DNA of 28,682 nt from a virus (taxonomy: Duplodnaviria > Heunggongvirae > Uroviricota > Caudoviricetes): positions 1 through 28,682 of IMG/VR virus record IMGVR_UViG_2671180357_000002. One strand, written 5' to 3'. A program made the position numbers and the translations under genes. Below the pieces are notes generated by a model. The model did no database searches. It saw nothing but the letters and a program-made list of their open reading frames with translations, and had not been told where the DNA came from. The first letter of the stretch is position 1; the number at the start of each line of letters is the position of its first letter. Below are positions 5,094-14,891 of this stretch, one piece after another.

Positions 5094-5483
5094 ATGGGCT
5101 TCCCATCTCCTGCGGCGGATTATGCTGAAAGCCGCATTTCTCTTGATCAGCAAATAATCAGGCATCCTTCAGCGACCTACTTCATGAGGGCGGCTGACAG
5201 CCATCACCGTGAGGGAATATTGCAGGGGGCATTGCTGGTGGTCGATTCCTCACTCACTCCTGTTGATGGTTCTCTTCTTGTATGTGCTATTGATGGGGAA
5301 TATCGCGTAAAACGATACAGGAAGTATCCGCGTCAGCATCTGGAGGATTTAAGAACCAGCAAGAAGGAAGCATTGCCAAAGGATGACGATGGATGCACTG
5401 GCAGTACTGCCGTGTTTGGCGTGATCACTCACATCATCAACGACGCAAGAAGTGGCGAATTTGATGATTGTCCTGTGATGTAG
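5094..5483 (+). CDS. umuD: UmuD'-like protein (S24 peptidase-family accessory subunit of translesion polymerase), encoded already lacking the N-terminal arm
   Basis: [30 protein letters not shown]... aligns by eye with E. coli UmuD from Gly25 onward ([29 protein letters not shown]); conserved Ser (ADSH) and Lys (RVKR) positions retained. Confidence 0.85.
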   Translation: [129 protein letters not shown]

Positions 5484-6793: not shown

Positions 6794-6829
6794 TCCGGCA
6801 ATCGTTTCATACAAGATAACGGAGAATAT

Positions 6830-7015
6830 ATGCTTAAAGAGGATTCATATCTTTTAAAGACGCTTGAAATGCGTGGCGTTGAACCTACAGTGAAAAACGC
6901 TCACGATATCTACCTTCAGTTTTCACCGGAACTGAAACGGCTCATAAATAAATATGGAGTGAATGACTCCGGCGTCAAAGCCATGATAGATGATGAATTA
7001 GACCATCTCACCTAA
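6830..7015 (+). CDS. Hypothetical small protein (61 aa)
   Basis: ATG preceded by GGAG at 6821-6824; same strand and operon as the preceding gene. Confidence 0.5.
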   Translation: MLKEDSYLLKTLEMRGVEPTVKNAHDIYLQFSPELKRLINKYGVNDSGVKAMIDDELDHLT

Positions 7016-7353
7016 ATAAACCGTTGACATTGGCGGTCACAAATTGATTCTTTTCTATAAGAATCCGTTGATCGCCACTATTCCCCTTCTATACATTCAA
7101 TCACATCCTTAAATATCAACAGGTTATAGTTGTTTATACCAACAAGAAAACAACTAAATAACAGATCAACGAAACGTCAATGCTTTCCCCCGATTTGGTC
7201 TAAAAAATTGACGTTTTCACACATCACTTCTTATACCCGCAATCCTACGCAGCAGATAGCGCCACAGCGTTCAATTCTCACTACAGACGGACATACACAC
7301 CACCAATAAAAATACACGCCCAAAATCGCTCCCGCTGCGTTACATAACCATAT

Positions 7354-7397
7354 AAACAATTTGTTTTCAGGAATAACAAAACAACTAAATAACACAT
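7354..7397 (+). promoter_or_regulatory. Cassette-family leader (AAACAATTTGTTTT ... AACAAAACAACTAAATAACAC) with no convincing ORF downstream
   Basis: Same palindrome as other cassettes; downstream 7398-8510 encodes only low-complexity ORFs. Confidence 0.4.
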
Positions 7398-7415
7398 ATG
7401 CCATTCCCCAAAACA

Positions 7416-7507
7416 ACCCACCTCTTCCTGTCAGGCTACCGAAAAGACCCACCTCATTGCCCCAGGCTACAGACCACCCACCTAATATCCCCAGGCAACC
7501 GAGAACG
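7416..7507 (+). repeat. Three tandem ~30-bp direct repeats (ACCCACCT-N10-CAGGCWACMG), iteron-like
   Basis: Units begin at 7416, 7447 and 7476; a paralogous triple repeat lies at 11409-11496. Confidence 0.6.
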
Positions 7508-7533
7508 CGGCTCGCACGCGCAAACCCCGATAC

Positions 7534-7826
7534 GTCATTACCCAATACACGGAGAAGAACAGCCAGAACGAAACCCCGGACAAACCCAGACAAGAACAGG
7601 AGCCGTCACAATCTCGTTTACCCACCATTACCCCGAAAGAGAGCGCAAATTCCTGAATAGCAGGGAACGCCATTACTTCATATGCGGAGAACAACTAAAG
7701 CGCCCTACTGCCATTACCCACACTTCCATCAATTCACGTAAACGAAGAGAAAAGCGCACCTGCCATTATTCAATACACGGAGAAGAACACTCCCCAAAAC
7801 GACGAGAACAACCCAGAAAAGAACCA
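7534..7826 (+). repeat. Two ~65-bp direct repeats (7534-7600 and 7761-7826) plus dispersed GCCATTAY motifs in a CA-rich tract
   Basis: Both copies share CATTAYYCAATACACGGAGAAGAACA; the plus strand is strongly C+A rich across 7400-7900. Confidence 0.5.
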
Positions 7827-8064
7827 CCTCAAGAACAATGAAACCACATACGCCGGTAGAAAGAACAAACCACCCATTTCACCCACAGGAATAGTCGCCG
7901 TATTGAGCGTTATCAGAGAGAAGGTTTATGCCCACATAAGAGAGAAAATTTGTGGGAGGTATAAGTGGGAAGGGAAGGAGGGGTATCGCCACTTTCTTCG
8001 TATAAATTCAAGCCATAGTTTTCATCCCCCGTAACGTCCCTTTCCACCCCTTCGGTCAGCCTTC

Positions 8065-8260
8065 GGGCCATCCAGGGAAAAGGCCATGTCCCTTTTCAGG
8101 AACGGGAGCGTCGCCGCAGGGAAAAGGCTGGAGGTTTTCAGGGAAACGGTGGGAATCCCGCTGTACGAACCGGGAAAAGGCTGGCTGCCGGTCGGGAAAC
8201 GGGTACATCCCGGTACAGAGTGAGGGACGACTGCGGGAGCGGTGCGGGAAATCTTCGGGA
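8065..8260 (+). repeat. Array of at least six (C/G)GGGAAA(A/C)GG motifs at 20-30 bp spacing; begins with GGGCCATCCAG
   Basis: Motifs at ~8073, 8117, 8139, 8171, 8193 and 8243; a related module lies at 12106-12298. Confidence 0.55.
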
Positions 8261-8522
8261 GTGCGCCTTACTCTTCACTCGCCTGAAAATCGCGGGGGAG
8301 TGTCATTCCCTCTCGTGCAGCTACTGGACTCCAGTCTGCCAGACCATCATCGGGTCTCAAGCGATTTCAGTAGGTTTTCGGGGAGAAGAAAATTCTGCCC
8401 ACCAGCCCTGCGGCGCGCGTAGAGCAGAATATCGTAAATACTGGTTCCCGTGTCGTTCACGGATATTCACTGCCCAGCCTGGCTTTCACGACATAAAATC
8501 CTTTTTCGCCTTTGTCTTATTG

Positions 8523-8581
8523 CGATAATAACACCAACAAGTAAACAACATGTTTAGACGTTATATAAACGAAGTGAGGAT
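8523..8581 (+). promoter_or_regulatory. Cassette promoter/leader (-10 GATAAT 8523-8528, palindrome AAACAACATGTTTA 8543-8556, RBS GTGAGGA)
   Basis: Variant of the conserved cassette; palindrome core AACATGTT. Confidence 0.5.
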
Positions 8582-8587
8582 GAAGAG

Positions 8588-8806
8588 ATGATTAAGATGC
8601 CTGTGACGGTTGAGGTGTGGGGCGTGGATTCTCTGGCTGAGTGTCTGGATGCAGTGGGGCCGGAGTTGTACCGCAAGTTGTGGTCGTTCGTCCCGGCAGA
8701 AGGGGAATCGCCCAAAGGGAAGGATATCTGGCACCTGCTTAGTGAAGATGAAAAGCGGGAGCTGGTGGACGCGGTACACAGCGAGTTCCCGGACGACGAA
8801 GATTAA
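8588..8806 (+). CDS. Hypothetical small acidic early protein (72 aa)
   Basis: ATG 8588 after GTGAGGA; ~17 D+E vs ~7 K+R; ends in PDDED. Confidence 0.6.
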   Translation: MIKMPVTVEVWGVDSLAECLDAVGPELYRKLWSFVPAEGESPKGKDIWHLLSEDEKRELVDAVHSEFPDDED

Positions 8807-8919
8807 GAGTGAGACCACCAGCACGGTGGCTTTTGTCGCTATTAACCTCCGGGGCAGCGCAGCACCGTAACGATATACTTTGTGGCCGTTTTCTTGCTGG
8901 TATTGTTTACGCAATTCAG

Positions 8920-10907: not shown

Positions 10908-10931
10908 AAGGCCACCAGCATTGGTGGTCTT
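10908..10931 (+). terminator. Hairpin AAGGCCACCA-gcat-TGGTGGTCTT
   Basis: 10-bp stem with one mismatch; near-identical to the hairpin at 11379-11402. Confidence 0.5.
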
Positions 10932-11378: not shown

Positions 11379-11402
11379 AAGGCCACCAATGCTGGTGGCC
11401 TT
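11379..11402 (+). terminator. Hairpin AAGGCCACCA-atgc-TGGTGGCCTT
   Basis: Perfect 10-bp stem immediately after the stop at 11373. Confidence 0.55.
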
Positions 11403-11408
11403 GAATGA

Positions 11409-11496
11409 CCATCCTGTTTCCCGCAGGCTAAAAACACCAACCTCTTACCTCCAGGCAACCGACAAACCCACCTGTTCCCGTCCGGCTACCGCAACT
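11409..11496 (+). repeat. Second copy of the triple ~30-bp iteron-like direct repeat
   Basis: ACCAACCTCTTACCTCCAGGCAACCG and ACCCACCTGTTCCCGTCCGGCTACCG match the units at 7416-7507. Confidence 0.6.
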
Positions 11497-11577: not shown

Positions 11578-12060
11578 ATGAATTTTATCGCTACTGTAAA
11601 CGCACCCGCACATGGCAATATCGCTGTAACGTTCTCTGATATTGAAAAACGAGTACTTGGTGCATGGCGCGACAATGAGACGGTAGAACTGTCAGCACAA
11701 GAAAAATGCATTATTGCACGCGACATCATTTGCAAACGTCGTTACTCACGGGTAATTGAGAAAGCGTATGTCGCAAATTCTGGCTTCGGAACATTTGTCT
11801 TCCCGGTACGCTCCGGGCGATTCTGCCAGTCCAAGCTGATTGAGTTCGCTACGCAGATTTCTGTCTGGATTAAAACTCAATCGTCGTTCAAATTTTCCGA
11901 CGATGAAGCAGTATCGCAGGGGATGCGGATCGCCAACAATGCAATAAAATGCAAAAACATTACGTATGCCGCTGGCGTTGACACATGGAAACTGTTTTGC
12001 GCTAACTTTATGCTGAATGTATACGCAAGCAACCGCATCCACATCCTTGATGGCGTGTAA
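11578..12060 (+). CDS. Hypothetical protein (160 aa)
   Basis: ATG 8 nt after AAGGA; followed by an intrinsic terminator. Confidence 0.65.
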   Translation: MNFIATVNAPAHGNIAVTFSDIEKRVLGAWRDNETVELSAQEKCIIARDIICKRRYSRVIEKAYVANSGFGTFVFPVRSGRFCQSKLIEFATQISVWIKTQSSFKFSDDEAVSQGMRIANNAIKCKNITYAAGVDTWKLFCANFMLNVYASNRIHILDGV

Positions 12061-12068
12061 CTGAGAAG

Positions 12069-12090
12069 AGGGCCAGAAACGGCCCTTTCT
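12069..12090 (+). terminator. Intrinsic terminator AGGGCC-agaaac-GGCCCT + TTCT
   Basis: 6-bp GC stem directly after the stop at 12060. Confidence 0.7.
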
Positions 12091-12105
12091 CTATAGCCAC
12101 CAGCT

Positions 12106-12298
12106 GCCGCAGGGAAATTTTCAGAAACGGCGAGGAACGCATTCATGAGCCGACGGGAAACGGCCAGGATTTTTTCGGGAAACGGCGGGGGTCGCCTTTA
12201 TGTAGAAAACTGAGCGGGAGAAACCCGGAATCGCGCCAGAAATTGCGTAGCGGCGCTGGGGTAGCGCTGGTGGGGGTTTCAGCCCCTGGGCCATCCAG
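12106..12298 (+). repeat. Second GGGAAA(C)GG motif module, ending with GGGCCATCCAG
   Basis: Shares GCCGCAGGGAA and GGGCCATCCAG with the module at 8065-8260; no ORF. Confidence 0.5.
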
Positions 12299-12612
12299 AT
12301 AGCTTTCGCTATGTGATTATGTGAATCCGTGGGTAAATCACTGTAAGCGCGTACACGTTGCCCAACGTGGCAATCATATGCGAGCGGATACAAAACAACA
12401 CAAAGAGCCGATCCGCGCCGACAAATAAACGCGGATCACATAGCAAGACTAAAAGCCAATGATTAACCATACTCTATAGCGCAATATAACGCGTTTTAAG
12501 CGCGTTAATGTGTTAAGTAATGGGTATGTACTAACAAGGATATAAAAGCGCGTCTATGGCGTTATTTTGGTGCTTATTTTTATGTTGTTGAAGCGAGTTA
12601 AAGACAATAAAA

Positions 12613-12634
12613 AACGCGCCAATGATGGCGCGTT
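12613..12634. terminator. Hairpin AACGCGCCA-atga-TGGCGCGTT (A-run upstream)
   Basis: Perfect 9-bp stem; one of a cluster of GC hairpins in AT-rich DNA at 12380-12960. Confidence 0.5.
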
Positions 12635-12660
12635 ATGGTGGGAGTATTGGAAACGAAAAA

Positions 12661-12679
12661 AGCGCCCATAGTGGGCGCT
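12661..12679. terminator. Hairpin AGCGCCCA-tag-TGGGCGCT flanked by A-run and T-run; downstream of the minus-strand 76-aa gene
   Basis: Perfect palindrome; identical copy at 12934-12954. Confidence 0.55.
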
Positions 12680-12684
12680 CGATT

Positions 12685-12915
12685 TTATTTGTGTAAACTA
12701 ATTTTGAATCCCATTTCTACAAACGCTTTTAACATTAAAAATATATCAGCGTCATTCACGTCTGCTTTTTTTCGCTCCTGGTCGTTCAATAAGTCAATTT
12801 TGCGCGTTGTTTCATTTATAAACTCGACTGCGCGCCCAGCGATCCCAGCGATCCCAGCGATGCGATTAACATAATATTCATTATGGACGTTAACGCCAGC
12901 GATAAGAACAAACAT
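12685..12915 (-). CDS. Hypothetical small protein (76 aa) containing an (IAG)x3 repeat
   Basis: Strong SD AAGGAG 7 nt upstream of the ATG (minus strand); flanked by identical palindromes. Confidence 0.5.
   Translation of the reverse strand: MFVLIAGVNVHNEYYVNRIAGIAGIAGRAVEFINETTRKIDLLNDQERKKADVNDADIFLMLKAFVEMGFKISLHK
12835..12861 (-). repeat. Perfect 9-bp tandem repeat CCCAGCGAT x3 inside the 76-aa ORF
   Basis: Three exact contiguous units; in-frame, encoding IAG-IAG-IAG. Confidence 0.85.
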
Positions 12916-12933
12916 GATTAAGCTCCTTAAAAC

Positions 12934-12954
12934 TAGCGCCCATAGTGGGCGCTA
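12934..12954. terminator. Hairpin TAGCGCCCA-tag-TGGGCGCTA, second copy of the 12661-12679 palindrome
   Basis: Lies between the 216-aa gene stop (12966) and the 76-aa gene start (12915). Confidence 0.5.
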
Positions 12955-12965
12955 TATCCATCTAA

Positions 12966-13936: not shown

Positions 13937-14464
13937 TTAAAACGGTAAAATTCGTTCGACCCAATCGAACATGGCGACTGTCTTCCTACCGTCCCCCATG
14001 TTGAGTGTGACCTGACAAGCGTCAACGCCTCTTGACACCCCTTCTATTTCACGACCGTCCGCCATGTAGACCCTTATAGACTTCTGCATCTCATGGGCCT
14101 GGCGACAAATTTTGAAGAAATCACGGCGAGATGGCCGATTGTCCACATAGTCTGGGTGTATCGTTGTCCGACCCGTGAAGTCGTGTGCAATGCCTTCTGT
14201 CACACCTGATTCAATCGTGCTGATTCGCTCAAGTGGGAGCCTTATACGATTATCTTTGTCGAACGGGGCAGGGCAAAGATCGACCTTGTTGCGTGACGAC
14301 ATGAGACCCTGAACATACATGCAGAACACCTGACCATCTTCCATCGTGACCCTTACAGGAATAAGAGATTTGCGCCAGAACATCAGCGCTTTCTCCACGT
14401 TGGTGTAATCGCGCGGCCAGACTTCTGCAGGAATCCCGTAGGTGATGTCAGTAATATTCGTCAT
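13937..14464 (-). CDS. Hypothetical protein (175 aa) with two beta-barrel-like segments
   Basis: Start at ATG 14464 (4 nt after the lipoprotein stop) chosen over the longer overlapping ORF to 14575. Confidence 0.55.
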   Translation of the reverse strand: MTNITDITYGIPAEVWPRDYTNVEKALMFWRKSLIPVRVTMEDGQVFCMYVQGLMSSRNKVDLCPAPFDKDNRIRLPLERISTIESGVTEGIAHDFTGRTTIHPDYVDNRPSRRDFFKICRQAHEMQKSIRVYMADGREIEGVSRGVDACQVTLNMGDGRKTVAMFDWVERILPF

Positions 14465-14468
14465 ATCG

Positions 14469-14891
14469 TCACAGTGTCGTTGGTAAGATGTCGATGTCAC
14501 CAGCATTACTGGTGAACACCCGGAAGACTTTCGTCTCGCCAGCTTTGGTAATCGTCTCGCGTTCCTGACGAGCAAGATTCAGTGCGCACAGCCCAGCGCC
14601 TTCGAGTGAGGCGCCAACAATCCATTCTCCGGCATTCAGATGAAAAGTGACTTTTTCACCTGTTTCCAGTTTTGCAACGGTTTCGCCATTGATGAAGATC
14701 GATGCGTCGCAACCGGCGCCCACCATGCTTTTATCTCTCATAACCACCAGCGTCGATGCCGCCGGAGATTGGTATTTGAATATTCTGGCCTGCGGTGCTG
14801 GCTTTGCCTCAGAGACAGGAATAGGACGAGATTGACATGCAGTGATAAGTAACGCGGAGGCAGCAACCAGAGGAAGTAATACGTGTTTCAT
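14469..14891 (-). CDS. Putative lipoprotein (signal peptide with lipobox)
   Basis: From Met 14891: MKHVLLPLVAASALLITAC-QSRP, a canonical lipoprotein signal peptide with lipobox ITAC. The upstream ATG at 14927 would put the start inside a hairpin with no RBS. Confidence 0.65.
   Translation of the reverse strand: MKHVLLPLVAASALLITACQSRPIPVSEAKPAPQARIFKYQSPAASTLVVMRDKSMVGAGCDASIFINGETVAKLETGEKVTFHLNAGEWIVGASLEGAGLCALNLARQERETITKAGETKVFRVFTSNAGDIDILPTTL

Follow-up and report, generated by a model that had tools for sequence, protein, structure and literature searches.

The question raised by positions 7398-8510 of the Caudoviricetes sequence IMGVR_UViG_2671180357_000002 is what is done by 1.1 kb of DNA that is dense in repeats, strand-asymmetric and apparently lacking a credible open reading frame (ORF). 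A first-pass annotation, made from the sequence alone, had offered an origin of replication, a partition site, a protein-sponge or structured non-coding RNA, or a packaging site as candidates. The window analysed here (the whole stretch of 28,682 nucleotides) is, judged by its matches, an SSU5-type phage-plasmid; SSU5-type phage-plasmids match the region, among them Salmonella phage SSU5 (84.7 %), and nine Escherichia coli plasmids of ~106-114 kb are 96.5-98.6 % identical to it. These positions belong to a larger block which, we suggest with a probability of about 0.4, acts in cis as DNA, as a locus of phased protein-binding sites heading operator-controlled early genes.

The conserved unit exceeds the interval first delimited. 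In 13 fetched loci and 54 non-redundant sequences homology starts at 7018-7022, just past the stop of the ORF at 6830-7015, and ends at ~8556-8560, the right edge (~8560) being the leader of the ORF at 8588-8806:

7018-8560, no strand assigned: whole conserved non-coding block, from blastn to 13 loci, alignments, plasmid-record matches and non-coding tests

A sensitive search with positions 7380-8520 matched 836 plasmid records at 67-98 % identity, 557 of them covering at least 80 % of the query, with hosts in Klebsiella, Escherichia, Enterobacter, Salmonella, Citrobacter, Cronobacter and other genera. Most of these records carry no annotation under the match, and no paper or annotation describing the block was found in a literature search. 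In annotated neighbourhoods it appears as a constant gap of ~1.4-1.6 kb with variable cargo genes to the left and conserved small hypothetical genes to the right. The window and the Klebsiella clade are 68-69 % identical across the 1.5 kb of the block and 68-79 % identical in the neighbouring genes; across genera the block aligns end to end at 68 %, with some segments at or above 90 %, and segments of 85-95 % column conservation are scattered along it in the 54-sequence alignment. Judged from these alignments the block is under constraint, and is conserved about as well as the genes beside it.

The features on which our reading chiefly turns lie in the right part of the block, where the + strand is 38 % G over 8060-8260 and a G-rich core recurs in a single orientation:

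7954-7983, + strand: conserved G-cluster GGGAGGTATAAGTGGGAAGGGAAGGAGGGG, from the alignment
8073-8203, + strand: six phased cores (C-R-GGGAAA-M-GG), ending at 8083, 8105, 8127, 8149, 8180 and 8202

The sequence GGGAAAMGG occurs exactly five times in 8075-8202, as against 0.42 expected in the whole window, and a degenerate sixth core (CAGGAACGG) is present at 8097-8105; the array of at least six GGGAAA(A/C)GG motifs first reported at 8065-8260 thus resolves into five exact copies and one degenerate. Successive cores are 22, 22, 22, 31 and 22 bp apart, which corresponds to two or three helical turns, and the spacing is the same in a second E. coli clade. Spacings of 42, 22, 22 and 23 were counted by eye on sequences of the Klebsiella clade, and a regular-expression survey across clades returned only 20-23, 30-32, 43-44, 52 and 65; in every clade cores were found 21-23, 31 or 43-44 bp apart. 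Between the window and locus L003 identity amounts to 85 % in the cores and 60 % in the spacers, with zero indels over 130 bp, whereas elsewhere in the block indels of 1-42 nt are frequent; some clades have lost several GGA cores yet keep the spacing. This combination of conserved cores, drifting spacers and fixed spacing is suggestive of iterons or of site arrays for a DNA-binding protein, and the array has the form expected of iterons, namely at least three direct repeats in one orientation with a ~17-22 bp period and conserved cores. The label 'iteron-like', first given to the ~30-bp repeats, was an apt one; the G-rich cores are phased at 22 or 31 bp between drifting spacers.

Further repeats lie to the left of the cores, and both families are found again at a second locus:

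7408-7505, + strand: three tandem ~30-bp repeats, motif A (CCCACCT-N-CAGGCTACCG), from Tandem Repeats Finder (TRF) and a repeat search
11404-11494, + strand: second motif A array, directly 5' of the leader of ORF 11578-12060
12110-12186, + strand: second GGGAAACGG-type core array, directly past the terminator of ORF 11578-12060

Motif A cores (CCCACCT..CAGGCTACCG) are located at 7417-7441, 7448-7470 and 7477-7501. TRF reports a tandem repeat at 7432-7506 with a period of 29 and 2.5 copies, and repeat family D4 spans 7408-7469, so that the three ~30-bp repeats originally placed at 7416-7507 are recovered by both searches. A 108.7-kb relative has clusters of the two families at these two loci and nowhere else, and the two-locus arrangement is kept in the SSU5, Cronobacter and E. 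coli clades; the related elements thus carry the repeats, whose absence would have spoken against the first-pass description. The second motif A array is bounded on one side by a Chi-containing hairpin and on the other by the leader of ORF 11578-12060, and the two exact cores of the 12110-12186 array are 22 bp apart. Lying outside ORFs, beside a promoter or behind a terminator, these second copies would fit sites that act on DNA. The ORF that both families flank (11578-12060, + strand) encodes a protein of 160 amino acids that belongs to phrog_1641 and occurs in SSU5-type elements only. As the product of the flanked gene it was the first candidate for a protein that binds the repeats. No Pfam domain was found in it, however, and neither PDB nor BFVD holds a significant match to its confident AlphaFold model of mixed alpha/beta structure (predicted local distance difference test score 82).

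The left part of the block contains inverted repeats and leader-like sequences, and a complete leader forms its right end:

7031-7077, no strand assigned: nested inverted repeat with outer arms TGGCGGTCA / TGATCGCCA, inner arms GATTCTT / AAGAATC and invariant centre TTTCTATAAGA
7130-7166, + strand: leader-like copy 1, with a ACCAACAAGAAAACAAC core
7172-7237, + strand: inverted repeat AAACGTCAA..TTGACGTTT, from the repeat search, with invariant TTGACGTTTT in the alignment
7354-7366, no strand assigned: operator-like palindrome AAACAATTTGTTT, the same site as before small early genes and operon heads elsewhere
7361-7397, + strand: leader-like copy 2 (the 'cassette-type leader'), 81 % identical to 7130-7166
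8497-8560, + strand: complete leader of ORF 8588-8806, with promoter-like GATAAT and palindrome, at the right end of the block
Window positions 2143, 7354, 8533, 8920, 9411, 10309, 11059 and 11544: palindrome (G)AAAACAAnTTGTTTA
NZ_CP075488 positions 27346, 37547, 40375, 70466, 80602, 81837, 82740, 84798, 85684, 89622 and 90593: palindrome (G)AAAACAAnTTGTTTA

The plan of these leaders is best read as TTGnnn, a spacer of ~16 nt, GATAAT, the palindrome AAAACAAyWTGTTTA, a ribosome-binding site and a start codon. A leader pointing into the region had been noticed at 7354-7397; it is present, and leaders of the same kind precede the neighbouring small genes. In the 108.7-kb relative the palindrome (AAACAAnTTGTTT; (G)AAAACAAnTTGTTTA) is found at 11 places, nearly all of them between a few and ~40 nt 5' of the start codons of operon heads, which include genes for a DnaB-like helicase, a ParA-like ATPase and the terminase small subunit as well as small early genes. 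Only two copies, that at 7354-7366 among them, have no gene behind them. The palindrome is probably the operator of a master regulator, or possibly a translational operator. The ORF at 13937-14575 (- strand, 212 amino acids) matches Pfam Flag1_repress (FljA) with an E-value of 1e-94 and is listed in PHROG as 'transcriptional repressor'. FljA acts on the fliC mRNA leader, and the homologue encoded here might bind the leader palindrome, as DNA or as RNA. Farther left a promoter-like sequence, TTGACG-N18-TATACC (7208-7237), is conserved but weak, and a consensus promoter scan made no call there; it overlaps the inverted repeat at 7172-7237, the right arm of which is the invariant TTGACG.

Between these elements and the phased cores lies a long tract of unusual composition:

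7060-7940, + strand: A+C-rich, G-poor, barely foldable tract, from composition, folding energy and repeats

A+C amounts to 67 % of its + strand and the C/G ratio is 1.3-4.1; the strand asymmetry of the region reaches an AT skew of +0.41 and a GC skew down to -0.45, and the A+C skew is held in every clade, also at variable alignment columns. The tract contains two direct repeats of ~62 nt (7536-7597 and 7764-7824, 72.6 % identical, E-value 4e-5), previously estimated at ~65 bp, and GCCATTAY-type motifs recur at 7400, 7534, 7669, 7710 and 7762, three of them followed by ACGGAGAAGAACA-type sequence. Several words exceed their expectation from dinucleotide shuffles (AAGAACA, 5 against 0.35; ACCCACC, 4 against 0.4; GGGAAA, 6 against 0.54), and the impression of strand asymmetry and repeat density is thus borne out by composition and word counts. 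A long-range complementarity between 7782-7795 and 8295-8308 was considered and rejected, as it is not conserved in the alignment.

Four to six GCCATTAC..ACGGAGAAGAACA units in the middle tract, including those at 7534, 7669 and 7762, resemble decayed leaders, which raises the question of whether the block is a decayed gene-cassette array that has kept its leaders, lost its ORFs and has no present function. The likeness of the GCCATTAC..AGAAGAACA repeats to degenerate leaders (by eye), the two leader copies without genes, and the few natural plasmids with insertion sequences in the block would all agree with this. We nevertheless consider it distinctly improbable, given that the block can be aligned end to end at 68 % across genera, like its coding neighbours, that more than 800 records keep it while the flanking genes vary, and that the cores are conserved relative to their spacers at fixed spacing.

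Interrupted and incomplete copies do occur. In locus L083 (CP099103.1, ~1340-2610), a complete circular E. coli plasmid of 112.8 kb, an IS3-family element lies at about window position 8060, and in the viral contigs L030, L017 and L067 the block is broken at ~7709, 8035 and 8226. Other sequence replaces the block to the right of 8239 in SSU5 and in an Enterobacter ludwigii plasmid, and the Cronobacter copy diverges past 8154. Klebsiella plasmids of 170-450 kb hold only the left half (window 7015-7754); one such copy (L007, NZ_CP023978.1, 4593-5341) stops abruptly at 5341 and is neighboured by a DUF262 gene and a type I restriction-modification system. That this half is an independent module of the large Klebsiella plasmids was rejected, the copy being a truncated remnant of an SSU5-type element. 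A 22-base signature of the block is also matched exactly in a metagenome-assembled genome labelled 'Bacillota bacterium' (L125, JAEWTL010000044.1) and in a 604-bp contig of Catenulispora yoronensis (L127); these matches in unrelated phyla are likely to be contamination or mis-binning.

How might a DNA locus of this kind work? The block would present operators and leader promoters at its left, then a long A+C-rich untranslated spacer, then the phased site array, with a partner array ~4 kb downstream. One phage protein could occupy adjacent phased cores along the same face of the helix and another the 30-bp repeats, both together building an iteron-type nucleoprotein complex. Rightward transcription that starts at the operator-controlled leaders and crosses the A+C tract might act as a switch for this complex. 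During lysogeny the untranslated C-rich tract would probably also block read-through from expressed cargo genes. The likeliest role of such a complex would be as the start or control site for lytic replication, the alternative being a platform for silencing or activating the early genes. Lytic origin or control is the most specific role that would agree with the iteron-like array and with transcription running into the G-rich segment. The narrower claim that the block is a RepA-independent (lytic) origin or replication-control locus is nevertheless a doubtful one, since no AT-rich unwinding element, initiator gene or conserved host-factor site lies by the cores.

Several observations weigh against a DNA locus of phased sites, or against its role in replication. 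The block is far from the replication genes, and no AT-rich unwinding region was found beside the six cores (GC 0.56 over 8001-8500). A single 8/9 DnaA-like box and a single IHF-like match are present, and neither is conserved across clades in the alignment as inspected by eye. The cumulative GC skew is monotonic and uninformative about an origin, because almost all genes are on one strand. The 22-bp spacing can descend from a 22-nt tandem duplication rather than from helical phasing. All repeats are oriented along transcription, GGA is enriched on the + strand only, and the persistence of the A+C skew at variable columns is a property of a single strand that is more easily explained at the RNA level.

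The proposal of a replication origin survives only in part: the block may be a non-RepA (lytic) origin or control locus, the role that we prefer, whereas as a RepA (IncFIB-type) plasmid origin it was rejected. In the 97.8 % identical plasmid NZ_CP075488 repA is 24 kb from the block and is flanked by ~20 ATCCACTGTAGTGAG-type iterons, a motif that is not enriched in the window (4 against 4.3 expected) and to which the GGGAAAMGG cores are unrelated; no Rep-like gene was found near the block. The direct repeats, and a ParB_N protein encoded 8 kb away, might be taken to indicate a plasmid origin or a partition centromere, but no parS-like palindrome is present in the block and the ParA-like ATPase is encoded in another region of the element. 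Nothing supports a partition site or a packaging site, and the terminase genes lie elsewhere. The plasmid interrupted by the IS3-family element is still a complete circular record, so an intact block is not needed for plasmid maintenance. Taken as a RepA plasmid origin, partition centromere or packaging site, the block would be very improbably explained.

Could the block instead be a gene that has been missed, or a structured RNA? Its length and conservation, and the small ORFs annotated in some records, could be read in this way. Among 13 aligned sequences, however, the ORFs of at least 45 amino acids differ in extent and frame between clades and none is shared; variable sites are distributed 251/249/249 by position modulo 3, with no 3-base periodicity, and only about one-quarter to one-third of indels are multiples of three. 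A missed protein-coding gene was rejected for want of a conserved frame, codon periodicity or frame-preserving indels. The homologues thus bear out the original judgement that no credible ORF is present; a conserved coding frame, which would have overturned it, was looked for among them and not found. Small ORFs have been annotated inside the block at 7231-7593 (- strand), 7482-7694 (- strand) and 8086-8286 (+ strand), with names including SSU5_108, CYRAN_103/104, WP_131073345.1 and WP_193115138.1. The minus-strand ORF rich in G, V and W that is annotated in several records (SSU5_108, WP_131073345.1) has ends that shift between clades, and these small 'hypothetical protein' genes are probably annotation artefacts.

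A structured RNA fares no better. No match at the gathering score was found in Rfam 15, which includes CsrB/RsmZ, ROOL, GOLLD and group II introns, and at E-values up to 10 there were only chance-level matches to eukaryotic families; a known RNA family was rejected on this ground. Folding of 7940-8520 gives z-scores of -0.1 (+ strand) and +1.0 (- strand), and that of 7240-7940 gives -1.2 (-104.7 kcal/mol over 701 nt). A sliding structure conservation index over six diverse sequences, with column-shuffle controls, reached a maximum of 0.64 and its only local signals coincided with DNA palindromes, and RNAalifold on 54 sequences predicted zero pairs in the G-rich part; a naive all-against-all covariation scan was discarded, being swamped by low-complexity pairings. 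The one clear stem, the outer helix of the nested inverted repeat (7031-7039 with 7069-7077), is 98 % paired and invariant, with one G.U-type position in 40/40 sequences and no covariation, and the inner arms shift register from clade to clade. The secondary-structure and covariance analysis that had been proposed thus yields no fold, and a globally structured RNA was rejected, z-scores, structure conservation index and RNAalifold being without signal. With no Rfam match, thermodynamic signal, consensus fold, covarying pair or conserved ORF, we regard a structured non-coding RNA (a ribozyme, riboswitch or large structured RNA) or a missed protein gene as an extremely improbable explanation.

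Transcription of the block can be followed in lysogenic cultures of E. coli LF82, whose phage-plasmid Cyrano carries it. CYRAN_102, the gene just upstream, is expressed at ~57 units, CYRAN_103, an ORF call over the left part, at 5.0 units, which is the detection floor, and CYRAN_104, an ORF call over the right part, at ~14 units, near the local background (PMC9928086, S1 table). The 11-fold drop from CYRAN_102 to CYRAN_103 indicates that cargo-gene transcription ends at the start of the block, and no intrinsic terminator is predicted on the + strand over 6800-8815; this fits Rho-dependent termination, since the tract is C-rich, untranslated and unstructured, with its C/G ratio of 1.3-4.1, and it includes an untranslated, unstructured segment of at least ~80 nt with more C than G, as Rho is taken to need. 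The block might then be mainly a Rho-loading transcription insulator between cargo and silent early lytic genes, its repeats being incidental. The weakly folding RNA, the fall from 57 to the floor of 5 with no intrinsic terminator, and the constant position at the junction of variable cargo and conserved backbone are all in keeping with this. A Rho utilization (rut) site needs ~100 nt, however, and not 1.5 kb, and insulation leaves the sequence-specific conservation, the phased G-rich cores and the reappearance of both repeat families at the second locus unexplained. As the main function, insulation is improbable, although it may coexist with a DNA locus of phased protein-binding sites.

Near-background levels in lysogens also imply that any RNA product would be specific to lytic growth or early infection. 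An unstructured early RNA of ~1 kb or more, whose GGA cores, ACGGAG pseudo-ribosome-binding sites and A/C-rich runs titrate CsrA, Hfq, S1 or Rho, is possible, if unlikely. Such a sponge would account for the leader and operator copies that point rightward into the tract, for the A+C skew kept in every clade and at variable columns, for a transcript almost free of structure and for the common orientation of all the repeats. GGA occurs 20 times on the + strand of 7950-8400 against 12.5 expected (z=3.5), with no enrichment on the - strand, and there are 14 (ARN)x3 runs where 6.1 would be expected. Motifs of the Hfq type ((ARN)n) and of the CrcZ type (AANAANAA), which were also tried as candidates, are enriched only weakly. 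AUACACGGA resembles the CsrA consensus RUACARGGA from systematic evolution of ligands by exponential enrichment, and CsrB contains UUUCAGGGAAAGGC; both are leads rather than tests. On the other side, CsrB/RsmZ and all other Rfam families fail to match even at E-values up to 10, no consensus promoter or terminator bounding an RNA was found, and the display of GGA in hairpins is inconsistent across clades, some of which lose the cores and keep the spacing. The GGA enrichment, moreover, essentially recounts the repeated core, expression over the left part in lysogens does not rise above the detection floor, and at the second locus one repeat family follows a terminator while the other stands between a hairpin and a promoter. 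The fuller proposal, that an early or induced A+C-rich RNA with a GGA array reprogrammes the host by tying up one of its global RNA-binding proteins (CsrA, Hfq, S1 or Rho), seems to us quite unlikely.

Some further features of the element deserve mention. Positions 12061-12965 form a gene-free, repeat-rich segment of 0.9 kb between the rightward early genes and the leftward block; it contains the second G-core array, two opposed Chi sites, an AT-rich part, three palindromes of the GCGCCCATAGTGGGCGC type and, at intervals of ~46 bp, three repeats of the AAGCGCGTTAATG type, and by composition it looks more origin-like than the region under study. Seven GGGAAACGG-type motifs, one of them inverted, are present at ~1460-1700 of an unrelated GC-rich viral contig (L095, IMGVR_UViG_3300046714_000194), in the gap just 3' of a gene for a 413-amino-acid AAA_25 (helicase-type) protein. 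This array, which was found by searching for the core motif, looks like the iteron array of another phage; by analogy only, it indicates that such arrays exist beside replication genes. A conserved Chi site also lies within the block:

8399-8406, - strand: conserved Chi site (GCTGGTGG on the - strand), inside the block, from the alignment

Chi (GCTGGTGG) is present 12 times in the window, against 0.69 expected, and 32 times on both strands of the 108.7-kb relative. Examples are at 8399-8406, 8761-8768, 8815-8822, 10912-10919, 11391-11398, 12097-12104 and 12266-12273, seven sites falling within 4 kb of the early-gene array, and several are built into hairpins 3' of small ORFs (CCACCAGCACGGTGG, GGCCACCAGCATTGGTGGTC, GGCCACCAATGCTGGTGGCC). 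Chi sites in such number and position may serve to shield linear DNA, incoming or replicating, from RecBCD.

Clinical Klebsiella, E. coli, Enterobacter, Salmonella and Citrobacter commonly harbour phage-plasmids of the SSU5/pHCM2 type, some of which bear resistance genes; no description of the lytic origin, early regulatory circuitry or separation of cargo from lytic genes in these elements was found in the literature. Their backbone has few large non-coding parts that are conserved. The block is one of these, is left unannotated in nearly all records, and offers defined targets in its six phased cores, three 30-bp repeats, operator palindrome and second repeat locus. If it is a lytic origin or master control site it would be of use for curing, typing or engineering such phage-plasmids. 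A sponge RNA, if that is what it encodes, would be a new kind of phage-host interference and, to our knowledge, the first large one described in a phage or phage-plasmid.

Among known systems, Rho-dependent terminators (rut sites such as lambda tR1) share with the block a C-rich, unstructured and untranslated tract 3' of an expressed gene and a drop in transcript at its start, but the block has about ten times the length of a rut site and carries conserved, sequence-specific repeats. The sponge RNAs CsrB and RsmZ likewise have GGA motifs every 20-30 nt on one strand, with a local likeness between the block and a CsrB segment, whereas the block is 3-4 times longer and lacks an Rfam match, consistent GGA hairpins and a bounding promoter or terminator. 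The injection-stop or first-step-transfer region of phage T5 is of kilobase scale, non-coding, dense in direct and inverted repeats and located at the edge of the earliest-expressed genes; it has the scale, the repeats and the early-gene edge of our block, also in a large siphovirus, although there is no sequence relation. The P1 C1 operators and the dispersed SopB-binding centromere sites of N15 are comparable in that AAACAAnTTGTTT precedes operon heads at ~11 places, one of them in the block, and in that candidate protein-binding arrays adjoin early promoters, but here three repeat families and 0.9 kb of A+C-rich sequence are added. Iteron arrays (the O-binding repeats of the lambda origin, P1 oriR/incA, R6K and F oriS) differ in that neither cluster here has an identifiable initiator gene beside it and that the six cores adjoin no AT-rich element or conserved DnaA or IHF site; they resemble the block in their short direct repeats of one orientation, ~22 bp apart with conserved cores, and in the presence of a second cluster elsewhere in the element, as with incA and incC of P1. 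The block is best filed, provisionally, as an iteron-like or operator-rich cis-regulatory block.

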